From Vulcanimicrobiota bacterium (lineage in GTDB: Bacteria; Vulcanimicrobiota; Vulcanimicrobiia; Vulcanimicrobiales; Vulcanimicrobiaceae), in the NCBI GenBank assembly GCA_963812155.1, contig CAWETW010000002.1, positions 1 to 64,000 of the forward strand: a DNA stretch of 64,000 nt, written 5' to 3'. How positions within the stretch are numbered: position 1 is the stretch's first letter; each line of letters starts with the position of its first letter. A program made the position numbers and the translations under genes. Positions 1 to 13,342 of the stretch are shown in pieces. Below the pieces are notes generated by a model. That model was given only the letters and a program-made list of their open reading frames with translations, searched no databases and was not told where the DNA came from.

Positions 1-709
1 CAATGCGAGCGAGGCTGTCGAGGACGAGCAGCACGTGCAGACCGCGTTCGCGCAACGCCGCAGCCTGCGCGCATGCCAGCGCCGCAGCGCGTACGCGTTC
101 GGTCGCCGGCCGGTCGCTGGTTGCGCAAACGATGGTCGCGTGGGCGATGCGCGCGTCGATCCATCGCCGGGCCTCGCGGCCGCGTTCGCCGATCAAACCG
201 ACGACGACCGCATCGCAGCGCGATCCACGGACGATCGCTTCCAGCAGCATACTCTTACCCGCGCCGGGCGCGCCGAAAATGCCGACGCGCGCACCGCGCC
301 CGAGTGCGAGCAGTGCGTCGATCGCGCGCACGCCGGTCCAAAACGGCACGGTGACCGCAACGCGCTCGTTTGGCGCCGGCGGCGTCTGCGCTAGGGCGAC
401 ACGCCGCCCCTGCGGGGCCGGACCGCCGTCGAGCGGCCTGCCGCGGGCGTCGAGCGCGCGCCCGAACGCGCAGGTTCCGAGCGCACACGTATCGGCAAAC
501 GGCTGGGCGCGCACGCGCGCACCGCGTGCGATCCCCGCGCCGGCGCCAAAGACGGCAACGACCGCACGAGCGCCGTCGACGGCGCAGATTCGGCCAGGAA
601 TCGCTTCGGCGGCAGTCGAGACTTCGACGAACTGCCCGATACGCGCGCCCGGAATGCTCGCGCTGACCAATCCGCCGCGTGCCGCGAGCACGCGGCCGTG
701 CGCAATCAC
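1..709 (-). CDS. fliI: FliI/SctN-family type III export ATPase (3' end runs off the window)
   Basis: Manual translation from GTG at 709, overlapping the fliH stop: MIAHGRVLAARGG...TGVRAIDALLALGRGARVGIFGAPGAGKS (Walker A)...GLIGERGRE...LLVLDSLAR (Walker B). Absent from the ORF track because it is truncated. Confidence 0.9.
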   Translation of the reverse strand, partial: MIAHGRVLAARGGLVSASIPGARIGQFVEVSTAAEAIPGRICAVDGARAVVAVFGAGAGIARGARVRAQPFADTCALGTCAFGRALDARGRPLDGGPAPQGRRVALAQTPPAPNERVAVTVPFWTGVRAIDALLALGRGARVGIFGAPGAGKSMLLEAIVRGSRCDAVVVGLIGERGREARRWIDARIAHATIVCATSDRPATERVRAAALACAQAAALRERGLHVLLVLDSLARI

Positions 710-1191
710 GGCGCGCGTTCGAGCGCGCACAGCAAACGGGCGCCCAAGCCGGCGTCGATCGTTCCGCATTGCAGGTCGATCGCGACGTCGCCGCGCCGCA
801 ATTCCGAGTCGGCCACGACTGGAACCTCCATGCCGTCCAGCCGAAAGATTTCGTCGGGATGCACGCGAATTCGCAGCGGCGACTCGCTTGCATATCGCGT
901 CACGGCGCGCGCCGCAATCGCCGCAACGTCGGCCGGCGCGAGTGAAAGTTCCCGCGCCAGCACGTCGCACGCGACGTCTCGAAGCAGTCCTTCCAGTGCG
1001 ACGTGGAGCGCGTCGGCGAGGGCCGCGTGAAAGCGGCGTACTTCGGAGAGCGCGCCCGCGCAGGGACACGGGTCTACGCGCACGGGCGGCGGTTCGTCTA
1101 GGGGATCGCCGGCGTCGGGAAGCGCGAGGGGTTGCAGCGGCGGTTGCGCTTGCCGCAGGAATGCGTCGAACGAAACGAAGCCGTCAGCCAT
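706..1191 (-). CDS. fliH: Short FliH/SctL-like protein (161 aa)
   Basis: C-terminal IRVHPDE...VVADSELRRGDVAIDLQCGTIDAGL matches the FliH/SctL C-domain; lies between fliF and fliI; ATG at 1191. Confidence 0.75.
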   Translation of the reverse strand: MADGFVSFDAFLRQAQPPLQPLALPDAGDPLDEPPPVRVDPCPCAGALSEVRRFHAALADALHVALEGLLRDVACDVLARELSLAPADVAAIAARAVTRYASESPLRIRVHPDEIFRLDGMEVPVVADSELRRGDVAIDLQCGTIDAGLGARLLCALERAP

Positions 1192-2653
1192 GGCGGCGCA
1201 GCAACTCCGTCGCATCGCCGATGAGCGGCGAATGCGGACGCGCCATGCGCTTGACGATCGCTTCGCGTTCGTGCTGTGGATACATATCGAGTACTGCCGC
1301 CGCCGTCGCTGCCGGAAGCGCACTTATGATCGCGGCGGCTGCGTGCGGCGGCTCCTGCGCAAGCACGCTGCGCACGCGCGCGGGCGCGAAGCCCGCGACC
1401 GCCTTCGCCGTACGATCGATGGCCGAGCGTTCGACGACGGCGCGCAGCAGCGACGTCAATCCGGGCAACGCCGCTCGAGCCGCAAACAGCGCCGCACCGG
1501 TGACGGCGAGAACCGGAAGCAACGGAACGACGGCGCCGTACAGCAGCCACCACGCATCTTTTCGCGCAACCCGGTCGTGACGGAAATCGACGGCCTGCAC
1601 GACCAGCGAATCGCCGCGTCCGGCGTCGTACCCGACCGTCGCGCCGGCAAGGTCGCGCACCTTAACCGCATCGAGTCCGCGTGCGACGTCGAGAAAAACG
1701 GCCGTTGAGAGGCGGCGGATCGTTGCGCCGCCCGACTCGGTGACGAGTTCGCGCGTTTCGCTTCCACGGTCTTCGCTCTCGTCGCGGCGCCGGTAGCGCT
1801 TGCCGCCGTCGTCGAGACTCTCGATGCGCGCCGCGCGTCCGATGCCGGCGCCCTCGAGCGGCGCCCGCCGCACGTCGCGTTCGGAGTTTCGATCGCGGTT
1901 ATACTCGGCGCGCACGCGCACGACCGTAGCGCCTTCGCCGAAGGCCGCGTCGAGCGCCGTTTGCAACGATCCCTGAAGATCGCCGGCCTCCGCGCCGGCG
2001 TTGTCGTCGCCGAGCGCGACGCCGCGATCGTCGAGTATCGTCACGCGTTCCGGCGTCAAGCCGGGAACGCCGGCTGCGACGAAGGCGCGAATACCCGCAA
2101 CCGCATCGCGGGCCAGACGCGATCCCGTTCGAAGGCGCACGCGAACGCTGGCGCTGGCGTCGCGCGACGACTCGTCGGCGAACTCCGCCGTCTTCGCCGG
2201 CGCGACGATGACGCGGGCGTCGTCGATGCCGTCGATTCCTCGCAGGCCGGCTTCGATGTCGCCCGCCAGACCGGTGCGCGTCTGCGCGTCGATCACGGCC
2301 TGCGGCGTCAGCACGCCGACGCCTGCGAGGGCTTCGGCGGTCGTTTGCACGTGGGCGTGCGGCACGCCGGCAAGCGAAAGCCGCAGCAGCAGATCGTTGC
2401 GCCGGCCGGCGGCGACGACGACGTTGTCGGCCAGCGGCGTAAAGGCGACGTTCCAACCGGCAAGGCGTTCCTCGACCTCGCCCAACTGCTCCGGATGCAA
2501 CGGCGTCGCGAAGAGCGGCGTGCGAGCGGGATGCGACGCGACGGCCCACACAACGGCCAAGACGGCGAAAAGGGCCGCAGCGGCACCGGCTCCGGCACGC
2601 GCCGGCTGCGATAGCGCGTTCCAGCGAGCGGCGAGTTGTGCGGCCTGCGTCAC
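1184..2653 (-). CDS. fliF: FliF M-ring protein with a C-terminal FliG-middle-like domain
   Basis: N-terminal TM, ring-building motifs (LAGDIEAGLRGIDGIDDARVIV, ASASVRVRL, FVAAGVPGLTPERVTILDDRG), second TM, then PARVRSVLAQEPPHAAAAIISALP...EREAIVKRMA resembling the FliG EHPQ region. GTG at 2653 overlaps the fliE stop. Confidence 0.8.
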   Translation of the reverse strand: MTQAAQLAARWNALSQPARAGAGAAAALFAVLAVVWAVASHPARTPLFATPLHPEQLGEVEERLAGWNVAFTPLADNVVVAAGRRNDLLLRLSLAGVPHAHVQTTAEALAGVGVLTPQAVIDAQTRTGLAGDIEAGLRGIDGIDDARVIVAPAKTAEFADESSRDASASVRVRLRTGSRLARDAVAGIRAFVAAGVPGLTPERVTILDDRGVALGDDNAGAEAGDLQGSLQTALDAAFGEGATVVRVRAEYNRDRNSERDVRRAPLEGAGIGRAARIESLDDGGKRYRRRDESEDRGSETRELVTESGGATIRRLSTAVFLDVARGLDAVKVRDLAGATVGYDAGRGDSLVVQAVDFRHDRVARKDAWWLLYGAVVPLLPVLAVTGAALFAARAALPGLTSLLRAVVERSAIDRTAKAVAGFAPARVRSVLAQEPPHAAAAIISALPAATAAAVLDMYPQHEREAIVKRMARPHSPLIGDATELLRRHG

Positions 2654-2919
2654 ACTTGCATGTTGAGGATCGACGAAATCGCTTGCGCGCAACGCTGTGC
2701 CGCCGCCGTGGCGGCCGAAAGTGCGACGTCGGCGCGCGCGCGCTCGTAGACGGCATCCTGCAGGGTGCCGCCACCGGAAGCGAATGCATCCTCGGCATTC
2801 TCCGCGTCGCGCAGCATCGCGCCGAGCGCGTCGAGCGACCGCGCGAATTCTCCGGCACCCGCGTCATGCGGAAGCGAACGTGCCACCGGCGCATCGGGAA
2901 TCAGCGGCTCGACCGTCAT
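2650..2919 (-). CDS. fliE: FliE hook-basal body protein
   Basis: 89 aa ending AISSILNMQV, the typical FliE terminus; positioned between flgC and fliF. Confidence 0.85.
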   Translation of the reverse strand: MTVEPLIPDAPVARSLPHDAGAGEFARSLDALGAMLRDAENAEDAFASGGGTLQDAVYERARADVALSAATAAAQRCAQAISSILNMQV

Positions 2920-3248
2920 AGACGTCCCAGTTCCATCGTCTGTTGCGCGATGGTCTTGCCGGCGTCGAAGAGCGCCGCGTCGGATTCATACGCGCGCGAC
3001 GCGTTCATCACCGCAATCATCTCGGTGAGAATGTCGACGTTCGTGCCGGCTTCGGTGCGAGCGCCCGAAAACTCGACGCGCGATTCGCCGTCGGCGCCGT
3101 CGACGACGCGGAACTGCGGTATCTGGCGCGCGTAGCGCGCGTCGGGACCGGCCGCTTCGGCGGCTGCAACGTTGCGGGCCGCAACGTCGAGTGCGGCGCG
3201 TTGCGCGTCCATCGCGGCAGCGGCCGCGTCGAGCAATGGAAGCGTCAC
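2916..3248 (-). CDS. flgC: Short FlgC-like basal-body rod protein
   Basis: AMDAQRAALDVAARNVAAAE N-terminus and NVDILTEMIAVMNASRAYE C-terminus; only 110 aa. Confidence 0.85.
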   Translation of the reverse strand: MTLPLLDAAAAAMDAQRAALDVAARNVAAAEAAGPDARYARQIPQFRVVDGADGESRVEFSGARTEAGTNVDILTEMIAVMNASRAYESDAALFDAGKTIAQQTMELGRL

Positions 3249-3463
3249 TTTAGCACCGCCTTTAGTTCCTGAAAACGCGAACGCTCGATCCCGAGCAGCG
3301 CCTCGGTGAAGATCGCCGCTTGCGCGGTCTGCGCCATCGCGGCGTCGGCGCTTCGCCCCGCATTGCCACCGGCGTTGGCGGCGGCAACCGCGCGTTGCGC
3401 GTGCTGCAAACGCGCGTTGGCCTCGTCGAACGCGCCGCGCAGAGAATCCCCGACGTCGAACAT
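3245..3463 (-). CDS. 72-aa helical protein in the flgB position
   Basis: First gene of the cluster, stop overlaps the flgC start; C-terminus RFQELKAVLK resembles FlgB termini, but the N-terminal ANNIAN-type motif is missing. Confidence 0.55.
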   Translation of the reverse strand: MFDVGDSLRGAFDEANARLQHAQRAVAAANAGGNAGRSADAAMAQTAQAAIFTEALLGIERSRFQELKAVLK

Positions 3464-3501
3464 GCGACGATTTTCGCGGGGAGCCGTATCCCGGGGCAGT
3501 C

Positions 3502-4580
3502 CTAAGGATGGCCGAAGTATGTCGCCGCGCGCACCGGCAGTCCCGCAGGGTCGAGCGGAACGCCCAAGATGAGACGCGTCACCTCGTTGTAGTTTGCAAT
3601 GCCCGACGCGATGCGGTTGCTCTTCAGGTACACGTTATACGTGCGCCACGTCCAGTGCGCGAGCAAGACGTTGACGTGATGCGCGTCGCGGCGCCGAATC
3701 GCCTGAAAATCCTGCCATACGAGCGGCACGAACTCGCGGCGGTTATAGTGCTGTTTCTGGGGCAGGTAGAGAAAGAGTTCGAACCAGCCCGAATAGCGCA
3801 TCGCGGGATCCGGCGAACGCAGACAGGCGATCACCGCCAAATAGTTGGCTTCGTCCTCGCGGGCGTAGGCCGCAACGTGACTCCATTCGTGCGCCTGATC
3901 GAACGGCCGCTCGAACCACAGGACGTCGCCCGCCAGTTGCGTGTTCAGCGTCAACGGATTGATGAACCCGCTGGTGCCGGTCGCCTCCATGAACGGATTG
4001 GCGATCGTCGGTTTGGCCGGTCCGGCTTGCGGCGACCAGTCGTCGCCGGCCGCTGCACGGCGGGAAGCCAGCCGTCAGCGAAGCACGCCGAGGTCGAGCG
4101 GCGGTCGCGGCGCGCGCGTGAGCGGGCGCTGCGAGCGCGTTCATTTCGGCCATCGCGCGCGTACGCAGTCGCGTGGCCGCGGCGGGCGTCACACGTGCCG
4201 CATCGAACGCGACGCGCGTTTCGATCGGCGCGCGCGCGTAGTTCCACCCCCACGACGCTTCGAACCAGATGGCGTAGAGACCGGCGATAGCGGCGACGTC
4301 GAAGACCAGTGTGCCGAACGAGTGCAGCGTGCGCCGCCGCCGCGAGCGAACGTAGACGACGATTCGCCAAACGATCGCGACGGCGCCCAGCAGCCCCGCG
4401 ACGTCGCCCAGCGACCACGGCAACGGATTGGTAACGATGAACGCGGCGTGCTCCCAGAGCGGGATAGATGCCGTTGGAATACGCGCGTTCGATCCACGAA
4501 GCGTTCGGCCGCCACGCCAGCGCCGCCGCCCCGAGGACGACGGCCGCCAGGCGGGCGGCGAACCAAAACGTCGCGCTCAG
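3502..4580 (-). CDS. DUF3810-like membrane zinc-metallopeptidase protein (frameshifted; start approximate)
   Basis: Pieces in different frames: WIERAYSNGIYP, PWSLGD, WGWNYARAP, GTSGFINPLTL, AHEWSH (HExxH), REDEANY. Confidence 0.7.
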
Positions 4581-6750: not shown

Positions 6751-7449
6751 CTATGGCGCCGGTTTCTCCGGGAGTCCGAGCGCTGCGCGCAGTTCGACCG
6801 TCGCTGCGGCGAAATCCGATTGGAAGCGCGGCTGCCGCAATAGCGCCGCGGCAATGACGGTCCCGGAAATCCAGCCCGCTTCGACGTCGCTGGGATAGTG
6901 GACGCCCGCAATGATGCGGCTTTCCGCAAAGATACTCGCGCGGGCGAAGAGCGCGTCGCGCTTCTCCGGGACCATCTGCGAGAGTAACACGGCGCTGCAC
7001 GCTGCGAACGCTGCGTGGCCGCTGGGATACGATCCGTGCGTTTGCGGCGCGCCTGGAGGGCGCGGCCGCGCGAAGTGCGCCTTCGCCTGTTCGACGAGCG
7101 TTTCGGTGTCGGCGCCGGCGTGTCGAAAGAGTGCGGAGGTCAGCGGCAGACTCGCAGGAAGGAACTGCTTGCCGAGCACGCTCGAAAAGACGAAGATCGA
7201 ACGGTGTTTGTCGGTCGCGACCTGAACGAGATCGGCATTCGTTCGCTGCGCCAGCGCCTCGCCAATTTTCTTCTCGTCATACCGCTCCAACGGCGAGTCG
7301 AGATTCGGCGGCGGCGCCAGCAATTGCGTGAGATTGACCGTTCCCGCCGGAAGGTAGTACGGCGCGATTGCCGTGTCTTTGGCGAGTACCGGAATCGCCG
7401 TCGCCGCAAACGAGGCCAGCAGCCACGCAATCGCGGAACGGCGGCGCAT
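6751..7449 (-). CDS. Secreted PAP2/class A acid phosphatase
   Basis: Signal peptide; KAHFARPRP, SYPSGH, SRIIAGVHYPSD motifs. Confidence 0.9.
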   Translation of the reverse strand: MRRRSAIAWLLASFAATAIPVLAKDTAIAPYYLPAGTVNLTQLLAPPPNLDSPLERYDEKKIGEALAQRTNADLVQVATDKHRSIFVFSSVLGKQFLPASLPLTSALFRHAGADTETLVEQAKAHFARPRPPGAPQTHGSYPSGHAAFAACSAVLLSQMVPEKRDALFARASIFAESRIIAGVHYPSDVEAGWISGTVIAAALLRQPRFQSDFAAATVELRAALGLPEKPAP

Positions 7450-8961
7450 CAGCCGTGCTGCCGCTGCAGCGGAAATGCCAGCACTTCGCGCACGGAGTGC
7501 TGTCCCGTGAGCAGCATAATGAGGCGGTCGACGCCGATGCCGATGCCCGCGGTCGGCGGCATGCCGTATTCGAGCGCGCGCACGTAGTCCCAATCCGGCT
7601 CGGGAATCTCTTCATCGCCTTCGGCACGTTCGGCAATCTGCGCCTCAAACCGCACGCGCTGATCGTCGGGATCGTTGAGTTCGGTAAAGGCGTTGGAGAT
7701 TTCCATGTTCGCGCAGAAGAGTTCGTAGCGTTCGACGAGATCCGGATCGCCGGGTTTGCGCTTGGCGAGCGGGGAGATGACGACCGGATAGTCGGTGACG
7801 AACGTCGGCTGCACCAGATGCGGCTCGAGCACGCGTTCGAAGATCTTGTCGAGCGCGTGGCCGTGCGTCGGCGACGCGGGCAGCCCGAGTTCCTGGAGAA
7901 TCGCCGCGGCGCCGGCCGGATCGAGCAAACGATCGCGCGCGTACTTGCCGTCGCTGTAGCGCGCGATGCCGTCGAGATACGAAACGCGCGCGAACGGACG
8001 GTCGAACGATAGCGTGCGCTCCCCGTAGGTGAGCTCGCTCGCGGCGCCGGTGGCGACGGAGACGAGGTGCGCGATCAGCGCTTCGTTGAATTCCATCATG
8101 TCGCCCACGTCCCAGTACGCCGCGTAGAGTTCGAGCATCGTGAACTCCGGATTGTGGGTCGTGTCGATGCCTTCGTTGCGAAAGATCCGGCCGATTTCGT
8201 AGACGCGCTCGAGGCCGGCGACGATCAGCCGCTTGAGGTTGAGTTCGGTCGCGATGCGCAGCTGCATGATCCGGTCGAGCGCGTTGCAGTGCGTCGTGAA
8301 GGGCCGCGCCGCGGCACCGCCGGCGACGTGCAGCAGCGTCGGCGTCTCGATCTCGTAAAATCCTCGACCGTCGATGAATCTGCGCATCTCGGCAACGAGC
8401 CGGCTACGCGCCATAATCGTCTCGCGCACCCCGGGCGTGACGATCATGTCGACGTACCGCTGGCGATACCGTTTCTCGACGTCGACCAACCCGTGCCATT
8501 TGTCGGGCAACGGCATCAGCGCTTTCCCCAAGCACCGCGAACGTTGTAACGTGGAGCGTGATCTCGCCCATTTTCGAGCGAAACGCGTAGCCGCGCACGC
8601 CGACGAGGTCACCGCGGTCGAGGTGCTCCCACTGCCCGAACGCGTCGTCGCCGACTTCGTCTTTACGGACGTAGAGCTGCAGGCGACCGGTGCGGTCGGC
8701 AAGATCCGCAAAAACGGTCTTTCCCATGGTGCGCTTGGAAAGCACGCGTCCGGCGAGGCTCCAGCCTTCGGCCTCCGCACGCTGCCCGGGTTCGAGGAAT
8801 CCGTAGCGCGCGGTCAGTTCTGCGGCGGTTGCGTCCACGTCGTAACGCGTGCGCGCAAACGGATCGTTGCCCGCAGAACGCAAAGCGGCCAGGTGTTCGC
8901 GCCTGGCCGCTACGAGCGCAGCTTCGGTTTTTCCGAGGTCGCCGTGATCGCCCAGCGTCAA
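7449..8961 (-). CDS. lysS: Lysyl-tRNA synthetase, class II (one frameshift near 8525)
   Basis: N-terminal OB fold in ORF 8404-8961; PLPDKWHGL, RYRQRY, GGAAARPF, FRNEGID, YGMPPTAGIGIGVDRL in ORF 7449-8780. Confidence 0.95.
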
Positions 8962-9614: not shown

Positions 9615-10520
9615 TCACCCGAAACGGACGACGCGCGGCCGCAGTTGCAACTCGTGCAGCACGCGCTCGTAGTCGGCCGGCGTCACCTCGGCCCACGTTT
9701 TCCCGAGGAGCGCCAGCAGCGCGGCCTCGACCACGTTGGTACCGAACGAGCGCCCGCCGAACTCCGGCGTGGTCGTGACGAGCGTGCGAACGCCGCGCGA
9801 TTTCAACTCGTCGAGATTCGCCGGCGTCACCGTGTTGGTCAGGACGAGTTTTCCGTCGAGGCGATCGGGCATGAATTGACGCATGAAATGGAAGTCGCCG
9901 GCGATGACGTCGGCTTCCTCGTAGTACTGCGGATACTTCGGGTCGGGCGCCTTCTCTTGTTTCTTACCGGTCGGGTAGAAGAACTGAAACGGCAGCTTGC
10001 AGGCGTCGGGCAGATACTTCTCCGCCATTTCTTCGAAGGTCTTGAGATCGCGCACCGGCATGTCTTTGTCGAGCGCGAAGATGAAGTCGCCGAAGAGCAC
10101 GTCGGCGCCGGCGTCGACGAGCGCCTGCGCCATGCCGAAGCGATCGAGCGCGCTGACCATGAGCACGCGCTTGCCGCGCAGGTCGATGCGCAGGTCGTCT
10201 TGCAGAAACCGAACCGCCGCGCGCTCGAGCGTGTTCTTCAAGCCGCTGCCGTCGACGACCGGCGTCGTTTTCGCCGCCTCGAGCAGGCGCAGGCCGTCGC
10301 GCAGCGCGTAGCGATGACGGCCGGCGTAGAGGTACACGTCGATTCCGCCCAAGCCGATCGCATCGACCTTCCCGTCGAGCTCGCGCACCATCGCGATCGC
10401 CTCGTCCAACTTGCCGTCGGTGCCTTTGCGCGAGATGTCGAAGGTCTCGCCTAAAAGTTGCGTCTGCGCGCGGTGATCGCGCGTCGACGAACCCAGCGAT
10501 ACCGAGACGATCGTTTTCAC
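9615..10520 (-). CDS. Conserved protein of unknown function (family often auto-labelled 'quinate 5-dehydrogenase')
   Basis: GTG at 10520: VKTIVSVSLGSSTRDH...DAIGLGGID...PVVDGSGLKNTLER...GRSFGTNVVEA; start overlaps the upstream stop. Confidence 0.7.
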   Translation of the reverse strand: MKTIVSVSLGSSTRDHRAQTQLLGETFDISRKGTDGKLDEAIAMVRELDGKVDAIGLGGIDVYLYAGRHRYALRDGLRLLEAAKTTPVVDGSGLKNTLERAAVRFLQDDLRIDLRGKRVLMVSALDRFGMAQALVDAGADVLFGDFIFALDKDMPVRDLKTFEEMAEKYLPDACKLPFQFFYPTGKKQEKAPDPKYPQYYEEADVIAGDFHFMRQFMPDRLDGKLVLTNTVTPANLDELKSRGVRTLVTTTPEFGGRSFGTNVVEAALLALLGKTWAEVTPADYERVLHELQLRPRVVRFG

Positions 10521-11631
10521 GCGACCGCTCCCGCCTGCCGGCGCGCCGCGGCCGCCGCGCGAATCGAGGCGATTCGTTCGGGCGTAATGGCCGCATCGAA
10601 CGCGCGCATGTCGGCCAACCTGAATCCGCAGCGCTCGGCCATCGACTGCATCTCCACAATCTTCGCGAGGTCGATCCCGCGGCCGAGCGTGTAGGGTTCG
10701 AAGCGGCCTTCGAGCGCAAGGACCATCGTCTCGCTCATGCACGCCAGCGCCGTTCGCGGCGGAAGATTCAAATCGAACTCGGTCCCGCGTTCGCGCACGC
10801 GTTCGAAACGCGGATTTCCCGGCACCAACATGTTGCCGCCCTCCGTGACGAGCACGTCCGGCCGCTCGGCGCGACGCGCCGGCTGACGTCGTGCGGAAGC
10901 GAGAGTTCGCACACGACGGCGCCGGTTTGCAAATCCTCAGGCTCGATTATGTCTTGCGTCGACGACGTCGCGGTCAGCACGAGTTGCGCCCGTCGCACCG
11001 CGTCGGAGATATTCGTCGTGATCGACGTTTCGCACGCAAGTTCGCCGGCGTTCGCGGCGTGAAACTTGCGCAACCGCGTTTCGTTGCGCGCAACCAGAAT
11101 CAGGTGCTTGACGTGCGGCGCGATCAGACGCACGCAGGCGCCGCCGATCGAGCCCGTCGCTCCGACGACGACCGCCGTCGCTTGCGCGGGATCGATATCC
11201 ATCTCGCTCGCCCCGCGGAAAAAGCTCTCCACGCCGGCAGCGATCGTCAGCGAGTTGCCGGTCGTCACGGGAATCGGCGAACGCTCGTTGATCGTTACGC
11301 CGCCGTCGCCGACGACGGCGGTGAACGCGCCCAGCCCCGCAACCTGCGCGCCGAGCTCCGCGCCGAGGTCGATCGCGGTGAGGATCCGGTCGTAGACCTC
11401 TTCGCGCGGAAGCGTCACCATCTGCTCGGGCAGCAGCGACGCCGAGACGAACCAGCCTTCGGTTTCGCGGCCGTCGGGCGCGCGCACGCCGGTCACGTGC
11501 ACCGCCGTCCACGGCGGCATCCACTCCATGATCTTGCGCATGATCGCGTCGCCCTTGCCCTTGGCACCGGGCTCGTAGCGCGCCACGTCTTCGAGCGAGA
11601 GCGGATGAATGACGAAGCAGAATTTATTCAT
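10517..11631 (-). CDS. Acyl-ACP reductase-like (COG5322-type) oxidoreductase (frameshift near 10870)
   Basis: MNKFCFVIHPL, AGLGAFTAVVGDGG, PVTTGNSLT, VVGATGSIG (Rossmann) and ALACMSETMVLALEGRFEPYTLGR match cyanobacterial AAR motifs, including the catalytic Cys. Confidence 0.75.
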
Positions 11632-12078
11632 GTTTGACGGCGCTTGCTTCGGCTTCTTTCTTTGAGGGCGGCGAGCATCATCTCGCTGTTCTCGCGGACT
11701 TTTCTTTCGAGCGTCGGGCCGATCAGTTCGGCGAGCGTCGGCACGCCGAAATCGAAGTCGACGCCGAGGTTGACGTGCGTCGCGCCGTCGCGTTCGACGA
11801 ACGTCCAGGCACCTTCGAACTTGTCGAGGTCGCCTTCGAGCAGTTTGTAGTCGATGCGCAAGCCATCGTCGTCGAAGCGATCCTCCTCGATCCATTCGAT
11901 CGGCGCCTCTTCGACCAGCGTCTTCCAGCGCGAAATGACGCCGCTCGGCGTGGCGCTCGAGCACGACGACGATCTCGACGTCGGGCATGAACTCCGGAAA
12001 ACGTTCCTGATCTTTGGCGAGTTCGTACACGATCCTAGCAGGTGCGGCGACCGTCGTCGCGGTTTCGACGTAAGGCAA
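11628..12078 (-). CDS. SRPBCC/START (cyclase/dehydrase-like) lipid-binding protein (frameshift near 11950)
   Basis: VYELAKDQERFPEFMPDV, then IEWIEED...LLEGDLDKFEGAWTF...DFDFGVP. Confidence 0.8.
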
Positions 12079-12091
12079 AGGTATGTGTTCC

Positions 12092-13342
12092 TTACAATAC
12101 GCCGAGCTTCTCGCGTGCAGTAGCCGCCCCTGCCCGCAACGCTTCGAGCGCCCGCTCGACTTCGGCTTCGGTGACGATCAACGGCGGCTCGAGCCGAATG
12201 ACGCGCTGCGCGTTGAGCGTCCACGCCGCCGTTACGCCCGACTTGAGCATCTCCGGAATGATCCAGCCGCCGTACCCTTCGTTTGCGAGCTCGACGCCGA
12301 CGACCAGACCCAGGCCGCGCACGTCGCGGACGACCGACGGAAACTCCGCCGCGATCGCCCGCGCGCCGGCGAGCAGCTGCTCGCCGCGCACGCGTGCGTT
12401 CTCCACCAGACCGTCTTCCTCGAGCACGTTCATCGCGGCGAGCGCCGCGGCGCACGCGAGTTCGTTGCCGCCGAACGTCGAGGTGTGGAGCAGCGGCGCC
12501 TTGCCGAAAGCGCGCGTCCACGCCTGCGGTCTTGCGATGAACGCACCGACCGGCATGACGCCGCCCGAGAGCCCTTTTGCGAGCGTCATCACGTCGGGAA
12601 CGACGCCTTCGCGATCGCACGCGAAGCGATACCCGCACCGGCCGAGTCCGGTCTGCACTTCGTCGGCAACGAAGAGCGCGCCGGTGCGGTCGCACGCCGC
12701 GCGCGCCGCCGCGAGATATCCTAGCGGCGGAACGTTCACGCCGCCCTCGCCTTGCACGGGCTCGACGATGAACGCGGCGGCATCCTGCAGCGCGTCGTCC
12801 AGTACGCCGGCATCGGCGTACGGAACGTGTGCGAAGCCTTCGAGCAGCGGGCGGAACGGCGTCTGGAACGTTTCGCGGCCGCTGACCGAGAGCGCACCCA
12901 TCGTCTTACCGTGAAACGCGTCGATCGTGCTGACGATTTTCGTGCGTCCGGTCGCGGCGCGCGCGAGTTTGATGGCGCCCTCGATCGCTTCGGTGCCGCT
13001 GTTGCACCAAAAGGAGATTTCGAGATCGCCGGGCGCGATTTCGGCCAAGCGTCGCGCCGCACGTCCGAGCATCACGTTGAACATCGTCTTACCCGAAAGC
13101 GACATTAACTCCATCTGCGCGCGCACCGCGTCGAGCACGCGCGGATGCGAATGGCCCAGCGTGAAGACGCCGTATCCGCCCGCGAAATCGAGGTACGCTT
13201 TCCCGTTTTGATCCCAGATCGTGCAGCCGCGTGCGCGCACCTCGACCGGCGACCCCGAGAGTTTCATCACCCGCGCCAGCGGCGGGTTGACGTATCGTTT
13301 GTAGTTTTCGTACGCCTCGGCGGCCAGTTCGGCAGGCGTCAC
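12092..13342 (-). CDS. Class-III PLP aminotransferase (putrescine/ornithine-like)
   Basis: NSGTEAIEGAIK, FHGKTMG, EPVQGEGG, DEVQTGLGR, TLAKGLSGG, HTSTFGGN. Confidence 0.93.
   Translation of the reverse strand: MTPAELAAEAYENYKRYVNPPLARVMKLSGSPVEVRARGCTIWDQNGKAYLDFAGGYGVFTLGHSHPRVLDAVRAQMELMSLSGKTMFNVMLGRAARRLAEIAPGDLEISFWCNSGTEAIEGAIKLARAATGRTKIVSTIDAFHGKTMGALSVSGRETFQTPFRPLLEGFAHVPYADAGVLDDALQDAAAFIVEPVQGEGGVNVPPLGYLAAARAACDRTGALFVADEVQTGLGRCGYRFACDREGVVPDVMTLAKGLSGGVMPVGAFIARPQAWTRAFGKAPLLHTSTFGGNELACAAALAAMNVLEEDGLVENARVRGEQLLAGARAIAAEFPSVVRDVRGLGLVVGVELANEGYGGWIIPEMLKSGVTAAWTLNAQRVIRLEPPLIVTEAEVERALEALRAGAATAREKLGVL

Follow-up and report, generated by a model that had tools for sequence, protein, structure and literature searches.

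Bacterial flagella have several reduced relatives. The hook-basal bodies of Buchnera have neither filament nor stators and are thought to export proteins; they are the reduced and sole flagellar set of an endosymbiont. A fusion between FliF and FliG is reported for Chlamydiaceae in the accessible part of Bergeron 2016 (PMC4768692), and the available text of Abby and Rocha 2012 (PMC3459982) sets injectisomes apart by a secretin and by the lack of flgB, flgC and fliE. The path from flagellum to secretion machine has so far been inferred from its end points, and the known intermediate, that of the Myxococcales, is already without rod genes. Here, we analyze a flagellum-derived gene cluster that begins in a stretch of 64,000 nucleotides (the window) at the start of contig C2 of a genome placed in Eremiobacterota (Vulcanimicrobiota). 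The cluster keeps a rod and a remnant of the C ring without a motor, is conserved across the phylum and occurs in two stages of FliG reduction. Found throughout this phylum of soil bacteria, it forms a second system next to a true flagellum where one is present, and it probably encodes a non-rotating type III export basal body with a rod, made from flagellar parts, whose gate would be working and exporting. In the literature searched we found no description of this system; most subscription papers lay outside the search. The available portion of Yabe et al. (PMC9758169) reports Vulcanimicrobium alpinus as cultured, diderm and without flagella or flagellin, and lists only fliN. The available part of PMC9259500 reports a TXSScan run on one family and describes no such system, and its TXSScan tables may list the clusters as flagellar. 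The system may represent a type III secretion branch that has so far gone undescribed.

The FliF-FliG_M fusion and its gene cluster

The host genome (G000) comprises 2.96 Mb in five contigs and is 83.85% complete. The window holds only the first third of the whole cluster: six minus-strand genes, flgB'-flgC-fliE-fliF-fliH-fliI, fill positions 1-3463. Four of their junctions overlap by 4 nt and the fliF/fliH junction by 8 nt; because fliH begins 8 nt inside fliF, there is no space for fliG. The coordinates, the Pfam matches and these overlaps confirm what a sequence-only reading of this DNA had proposed, namely a 72 aa open reading frame (ORF) followed by flgC-fliE-fliF-fliH-fliI with overlapping ends and no fliG. 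Its description of the cluster as miniaturised did not hold, as the window covers the first third only and the cluster is not small in gene number. The features of the locus are:

1-709, minus strand: fliI export ATPase, first 236 aa, truncated by the start of contig C2; ATP-synt_ab E 1e-26
706-1191, minus strand: fliH, shortened to 161 aa; Pfam FliH E 8e-8
1184-2653, minus strand: fliF fused to a FliG middle (ARM) domain, 489 aa, GTG start overlapping the fliE stop
1238-1396, minus strand: FliG_M tail of FliF, residues 420-472, with the EPPH motif (434-437), predicted FliM dock
2650-2919, minus strand: fliE, rod-MS ring junction, 89 aa; Pfam FliE E 1.1e-5, above cut-off
2916-3248, minus strand: flgC, proximal rod protein, 110 aa; Pfam Flg_bbr_C E 1.3e-5
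3245-3463, minus strand: flgB', a shortened protein like the proximal rod protein FlgB, 72 aa, assigned from its position and by transitive similarity
3464-3520, minus strand: putative promoter, with a hexamer resembling a -10 element some 6-7 nt ahead of the flgB' start, found by eye in aligned upstream regions

The FliF protein contains the Pfam domains YscJ_FliF (39-213) and YscJ_FliF_C (282-356). Its layout runs from a first transmembrane segment (TM1) through the ring-building motifs RBM1-2 and an RBM3 with a short collar to TM2, a helix and a four-helix tail. The tail had been noted earlier to resemble the FliG middle domain, and this is now well supported: in the 488 aa piece used for the scan, FliG_M matches residues 423-472 with E 1.1e-7 and 32.5 bits, against a cut-off of 25. 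Only positions 113-168 of the 338 in the TIGR00207 fliG profile are covered, and the tail matches residues 119-186 of FliG from the other class of the phylum (Xenobia, see below) at E 3.5e-4 in a profile-profile (HH) comparison. An assignment as MgtE_N (E 0.012) falls below the cut-off of that family, and FliG_M is preferred by score, position and HH match. An AlphaFold2 model (32 rows, pLDDT 71.9, pTM 0.28) gives FliF three ring-building domains and one long helix, with four short helices spanning residues 424-471. Foldseek searches with this model returned FliF/SctJ chains for all top matches and were uninformative on the tail.

A protein scan with FliF found 30 loci, all titled Eremiobacterota/Vulcanimicrobiota. 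All 39 aligned loci (repeat entries of one genome counted) have a FliF that ends in the tail; it is plain in 36 of them and more diverged in the three of family f3, where FliG_M reached E 0.15 in the one copy scanned. Among 621 proteins found with the tail, the best 120 all carry FliF domains and 118 of these reach the FliG_M mark. The tail in every aligned locus and the FliF domains in these best matches rule out an indel artefact as the source of the fusion. The sequence-only reading had allowed that an indel could mimic the fusion, though not the loss of the FliG N and C domains. The tail is also the best-conserved segment of FliF (0.80, against 0.75 and 0.62 for ring domains); in four relatives its dN/dS is 0.03-0.09, the range over all FliF segments being 0.02-0.32. 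In a modelled complex of the tail with the middle domain of the cluster FliM (both copies from the relative locus L006) the docking score was 0.73, the best of three controls giving 0.00; the mark for this score is reached by 116 of 157 solved pairs and 2 of 215 mismatched pairs. Across runs at least 98% of the contacts recur, the pLDDT of the partners is 84 or higher, and EPPH faces FliM residues 100 and 115-118, which are near-invariant columns. Complexes of FliG and FliM middle domains are already solved and the predictor may be reproducing them, hence docking of the cluster FliM by the tail is a prediction, with the model speaking for likeness and not for binding.

The 72 aa ORF has no Pfam match, and its direct HH match to FlgB is weak (E 0.044), with an Atlas lead to a FlgB cluster at 0.86. 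A profile of 30 ORFs from the flgB' slot matches a 104-108 aa protein at the same position in family f3 (E 5e-6 to 7e-4), whose own match in the other class is FlgB (HH E 2e-10), which makes the ORF a likely FlgB-like protein. FlgC has TIGR01395 as best match (E 3.8e-12, below cut-off). FliI also matches SctN/FliI models, and the relative locus L006 holds a whole fliI of 410 aa with Walker A, GERGRE and DSLAR motifs. Imperfect 11-bp repeats lie farther upstream in the putative promoter region, and the placement of the -10 element suggests a leaderless message. Upstream of flgB in L096-L110 there are runs of TGTTAACA-like repeats with 11-bp spacing, as for a response-regulator site.

Elsewhere in the window, lysS and genes near 10.5-12 kb (7449-8961 and 10517-12078) are split across frames but intact in L006, which suggests indel errors of the assembly. 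Positions 9615-13342 hold a conserved operon of what are presumably, from reading the sequence, a class III aminotransferase-like, a cyclase/START-like and an acyl-ACP reductase-like gene, along with a gene for a 301 aa protein.

Coexistence with a flagellum and the whole-FliG form

In relatives, fliI is followed, usually after a gene for a lytic transglycosylase, by genes for an aspartyl-protease-domain protein, a 183 aa protein, a 240 aa protein of the FlgE/F/G family and a 258 aa protein, and the cluster ends with fliN, fliP, metF, fliQ, fliR, flhB and flhA. This order was read in 14 opened loci of the window's class, with names assigned by Pfam, and in these relatives FliM, FliN and the FliPQR-FlhBA gate continue the cluster. 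The 258 aa protein is FliM by fold (pLDDT 80; Foldseek E 9e-9 to FliM of the Salmonella C ring) and is without the N-terminal LSQ..ID stretch, the CheY-binding part of FliM. The 240 aa protein occupies the position of flgE, and a branch with a support of 98 sets it apart from FlgF/FlgG, on the side of the hook proteins, so that it is taken to be a short hook protein. The position of fliK is occupied by the 183 aa protein (HH E 0.075; Pfam match in one of five copies scanned). A satellite, flgF-flgG-61 aa-fliA-102 aa, lies at C2:98484-100975 of the host and in all five relatives opened. The gene that corresponds to its 61 aa ORF in the other class encodes a clear FlgJ rod-binding protein; the 102 aa gene after fliA, an FlgM candidate by position, has no Pfam match, and its best Atlas matches (0.88) are unnamed clusters with low recognition.

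The host carries one flhA and one fliI, with flhA, flhB, fliR, fliQ and half of fliP at C4:172490-177869. The NP(T/S/E/Q)H motif of FlhB is present in 29 of 31 rows, the ATPase motifs and the methionine loop of FliP are kept, the cluster genes are under purifying selection, and an FlhA-family match turns up in 146 of the phylum's 151 genomes. Most clusters of the family have metF (MTHFR) between fliP and fliQ (L006:18163-19071; host C4:176549-177457), and the aspartyl-protease-domain gene comes after fliI or after the transglycosylase. In the host, similarity to the relative's cluster breaks off halfway through fliP; the 24 kb beyond (C4:177870-202304) have a tetranucleotide distance of 0.392, above all 121 windows of the genome (maximum 0.299), and are a chimeric join or a foreign insertion.

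Because the host genome is incomplete we used a panel of 30 of the 151 genomes, picked for few contigs and hence a non-random sample in which related genomes count separately though they are not independent; 19 have one FlhA match and 11 have more. The divergent FliF is present in 30 of 30. FliG_C, MotB_plug, FlgD and flagellin exceed their cut-offs in the same 11 genomes, each of which also has a second, canonical FliF (in this subset the derived cluster was opened in five and the canonical one in three). Since the divergent FliF occurs in all 30 and the canonical set in 11, the cluster represents a second system that genomes retain whether they are flagellated or not. In the 19 one-system genomes none of FliG_C, MotB_plug, FlgD or flagellin is above cut-off (0/19 each); MotA_N was found in none of four genomes, a test in which the flagellated control itself scored only below cut-off. 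FlgI occurs in 4 of 23 genomes, all flagellated. Three weak flagellin matches in genus g4 were set aside: the two that were opened both lie in ORFs that read as efflux-adaptor-like. Genome searches of the host, at its 83.85% completeness, gave no fliG, flagellin or MotA_N, and profiles purpose-built for FliG, FliC, FlgK, FlgL, FlgD, FlgH, FlgI and FlgA had zero matches among its 39,358 six-frame ORFs, those for FlgK and FlgL being built from three sequences each. As a positive control, FlgC, FlgE and FlgB profiles did recover the derived rod genes from the same ORFs. Likewise, FliG_C, MotB_plug, FlgD and flagellin are not above cut-off in any of five single-contig relatives with one flhA. A full fliG, motAB and flagellin elsewhere in the genome would have spoken against the sequence-only reading; none turned up in the host or in these five.

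Neither class has a secretin in its opened clusters. The single secretin of the host sits in a type IV pilus operon, and the single-contig genome G087 has no secretin yet keeps the cluster. Conserved SctF-, SctD- or translocon-like genes were not noticed in the opened loci, for which no profile search was made. The type III secretion system (T3SS) core occurs together with flgB (by transitive similarity only), flgC and fliE, the combination that marks a flagellum in the gene rule of Abby and Rocha, and an automatic classifier would likely call the cluster a flagellum. With no linked secretin, with flgC and fliE present and with FlhA outside SctV, the cluster is distinct from injectisomes, as had been proposed.

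A fliJ gene is absent from the cluster of the window's class, and a fliJ-like match (E<=0.01) was found elsewhere in 14 of 16 unflagellated family genomes and in the host, nine of them above cut-off. In 12 of 12 opened loci this gene adjoins purA, which is the site of the flagellar operon in flagellated relatives; the lone copy of the host follows purA at C1:436650-437120 on the minus strand. It may serve the second system.

The other class, Xenobia, has FliF in 18 of 18 genomes and MotB and flagellin in 6 of 18. Twelve opened loci read flgB flgC fliE fliF fliG fliH fliI fliJ slt fliK short-hook, then fliM fliN fliO fliP fliQ fliR flhB flhA, with no flgD, motA or motB, and seven of these 12 genomes are without MotB and flagellin. 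Here FliG is whole, and its first torque-helix arginine (5/5 canonical rows), which we take to be Salmonella Arg281, is replaced by Asp or Glu in 12 of 12; the second (4/5 canonical rows) is kept in none of the 12, as aligned to T. maritima FliG. The contact of MotA Glu98 with FliG Arg281 is critical for torque according to the available part of PMC7564593. FliM of this class also is without the N-terminal stretch of canonical FliM, and a second pair of FliK-like and FlhB-like genes is kept. The window's class appears to have gone further, cutting FliG to its middle domain, fusing it to FliF and losing fliJ and fliO. Because FliF and FliG are unfused in the orthologous cluster of the other class, the fusion may have arisen separately from the chlamydial one. 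A scan of genome contigs with the unfused FliG found at least 21 close loci before identity dropped to 33-38% among the matches listed; several of these loci, and one FlhA within the clade (P0122, 'Ca. Binatus'), bear depositor labels of other phyla. Many Xenobia genomes have 5-9 FHIPEP matches and lone FliF-like genes (L107, L108, L111, L112) with no flagellar neighbours, and L099 (G053) is a third, differently ordered flagellar cluster whose FlhA stands apart from the canonical FlhA of the phylum.

The FlhA trees are quick, unrooted IQ-TREE runs of one gene (C20, SH-aLRT support only, no bootstrap); their SctV rows include Myxococcota and Chlamydiales, and chlamydial FliF/FlhA remnants were left out. 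For a profile of 19 second-system FlhA proteins, only three 50%-clusters scored above a gap (1061, 921 and 885 bits, then 790). In the trees the second systems of both classes form one group (99-100), outside SctV (100) and outside the canonical FlhA group that holds the phylum's own flagellum (99 with 18 rows, 94 with 16, 98 with 11). Joining them to the hosts' flagellar FlhA was rejected (AU p 0.028, for a group named after the trees were seen, and with long branches that attract). Trees and test disfavor a recent duplicate of the host flagellum.

Proposed machine and competing explanations

By gene content the machine has a FliF ring, a gate of FliP, FliQ, FliR, FlhB and FlhA, the export proteins FliH and FliI, FliM and FliN, the rod proteins FliE, FlgB', FlgC, FlgF and FlgG, a hook-family protein of no more than about 240 aa, a sigma factor of the FliA type, a protein like FliK and, usually, a lytic transglycosylase. 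It comes without a stator, the torque domain of FliG, a hook cap, L and P rings, junction proteins or flagellin. We favor as fairly probable that this is a second type III export basal body that does not rotate. The FliG_M tail would hold a short FliM-FliN ring with the sole role of a platform for FliH and FliI, and FliJ would be borrowed from the gene left beside purA when the true flagellar operon was deleted. The gate would build the rod and a short hook-like stub through the cell wall, whereupon FliK' would switch FlhB. Proteins would then be exported across inner membrane and wall, most likely to the periplasm or up to the outer membrane, because no ring or secretin is linked to the cluster. 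The non-rotating, flagellum-derived system of the sequence-only reading is thus supported by gene content, its cargo export or appendage building being as conjectural as before.

Several observations weigh against this reading. FliI is without the first ~20 profile positions and FliH is short, and the link between them may be weak for this reason. The identity of the 183 aa protein as FliK is weak, FliJ was not found in three of three f3 genomes or in 2 of the 16 family genomes, and the host match to FliJ is below cut-off. The host assembly misses the middle ~5 kb of the cluster, between fliI and fliP, and the cluster of the closest relative is without the lytic transglycosylase. No cargo was identified; a strict sigma-28 pattern has two matches in the host, neither before a gene, and a loose one has four intergenic matches with no theme (raw counts, no shuffle control). 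An outer-membrane exit is not evident in the cluster, though the cultured member of the phylum is diderm, as far as the available text of PMC9758169 goes. As to the absences, a very divergent filament would escape the tests, and canonical FlgC missed the derived FlgC by tblastn.

Alternatively, rod and stub may themselves be the product, a static strut, sensor or platform that spans the envelope and exports little or no other cargo. In Bacillus, export-gate proteins reportedly serve as a platform for nanotubes. All five rod genes and a hook-family gene recur in each cluster or satellite that was opened, neither cargo nor chaperone nor a conserved sigma-28 regulon came to light, and the near-universal FlhA match is what a housekeeping structure would leave. 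However, the FliK-like protein, the FlhB cleavage motif and FliA are retained, and the other class keeps its second FliK-like and FlhB-like pair; in flagella, FliK, FlhB cleavage and FliA bring about the switch to late substrates. We regard a mere strut as rather unlikely. It is improbable that the cluster encodes a weapon or exchange organelle of the injectisome kind, dependent on contact and with a needle and outer-membrane channel that escaped recognition: FlhA does lie on the flagellar side nearest SctV in four trees, and some members of the phylum are proposed predators in the available part of PMC9259500, but no secretin lies in or near the cluster, the only one of the host belongs to the pilus and G087 has none, and inspection of the opened loci, made with no profile search, offered no conserved gene that resembled SctF, SctD or a translocon.

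That the cluster is a decaying relic of a lost flagellum is very improbable and already largely refuted. The long branches and shortened proteins of the window's class and its stepwise loss of fliG, fliJ and fliO relative to the other class would suit decay, whereas purifying selection, retention in all 11 panel genomes that also have an intact flagellum and an FlhA that is not sister to that of the hosts' flagellum (with the reservation on naming given above) do not. A second rotating flagellum with borrowed or unrecognised stators and filament is hardly credible either. Relatives of MotA and MotB of the ExbB/TolQ and OmpA types exist elsewhere in the host, and 11 of 30 panel genomes could supply MotAB and flagellin in trans; against this, the domain that stators push on is absent in the window's class (FliG_C 0/19) and charge-reversed in the other, and 19 of 30 genomes have no flagellin above cut-off.

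Relation to known systems

The export basal body we propose has a bearing beyond this locus. Flagellar gene calls in genomes of this phylum do not indicate swimming, the presence of a true flagellum in the same cells makes a direct comparison possible, and the cultured, unflagellated Vulcanimicrobium alpinus could make the question testable. Even under a cautious reading, the minimum of FliG for a C ring would be about 55 residues. The nearest FlhA neighbours are Sericytochromatia and Margulisbacteria/WOR-1 (four of ten looked-up proteins are so named), joined at 95; a single clade of all three with Eremiobacterota is unsupported in the FlhA tree, and the short hook proteins group at 92. As a tentative idea, more doubtful than the export function, the three lineages may share a third, ancient branch of type III secretion, motor-less, with rod and short hook, which split from flagella on the line to injectisomes. 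If so, it would be a living relative of the periplasmic, secretin-less intermediate predicted by Abby and Rocha, and the phylum would preserve its steps, a whole FliG with a dead torque helix and then a FliM-binding tail on FliF.

The second cluster of Sericytochromatia (L289-L317) likewise has a FliF that ends in FliG_M (6/6 scanned) and a canonical cluster beside it (three genomes opened), but it keeps flgA/H/I and, in some genomes, flagellin-family genes. Sericytochromatia also have FliG-similar genes of 691 and 355 aa away from flagellar clusters (L402:9644, L403:9487) and extra MotB copies. Loci of Margulisbacteria/WOR-1 (L318-L397) share the order fliK-short hook-fliM-fliN-fliPQR-flhBA and have no mot genes in them. 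With the flagellar basal body, the Eremiobacterota system shares homologous parts and the order flgB-flgC-fliE-fliF-(fliG)-fliH-fliI ... fliK-(flgE)-fliM-fliN-fliP-Q-R-flhB-flhA. Unlike the flagellum it has no MotAB, FliG_N/C, FlgD, FlgA/H/I, FlgK/L or FliC, its hook gene is cut to ~240-275 aa, its FliM is without the N-terminal stretch, and the complete flagellum found alongside it is encoded by separate copies. The Buchnera bodies differ in that the present system is a separate, paralogous set in free-living bacteria, beside a working flagellum.

A FliF-FliG_M fusion alone is not new, being known from Chlamydia. The likeness, in the accessible part of PMC4768692, lies in a cytosolic FliF end homologous to the FliG middle domain in an unflagellated bacterium; the chlamydial FliF described there has ~330 aa, misses the SpoIIIAG-like RBM3 and a portion of the SctJ region, and is accompanied by only a handful of flagellar genes, which interact with an injectisome that is separate. 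The Eremiobacterota FliF, in contrast, keeps RBM1-3 and comes with its own full gate, FliM/N, rod and sigma factor. The Myxococcales NF-T3SS resembles our system in being motor-less, without secretin or needle, and conserved among free-living bacteria, with a proposed role in translocation or as a periplasmic structure, according to the available text of PMC3459982. As described there, it is without FlgBCDEK, FliE, FliG and FlgH and stands on the SctV side, whereas rod genes, FliE, FliM/FliG_M and FliA are all present in the Eremiobacterota system, and a branch with a support of 100 splits its FlhA from SctV, the Myxococcales rows included.

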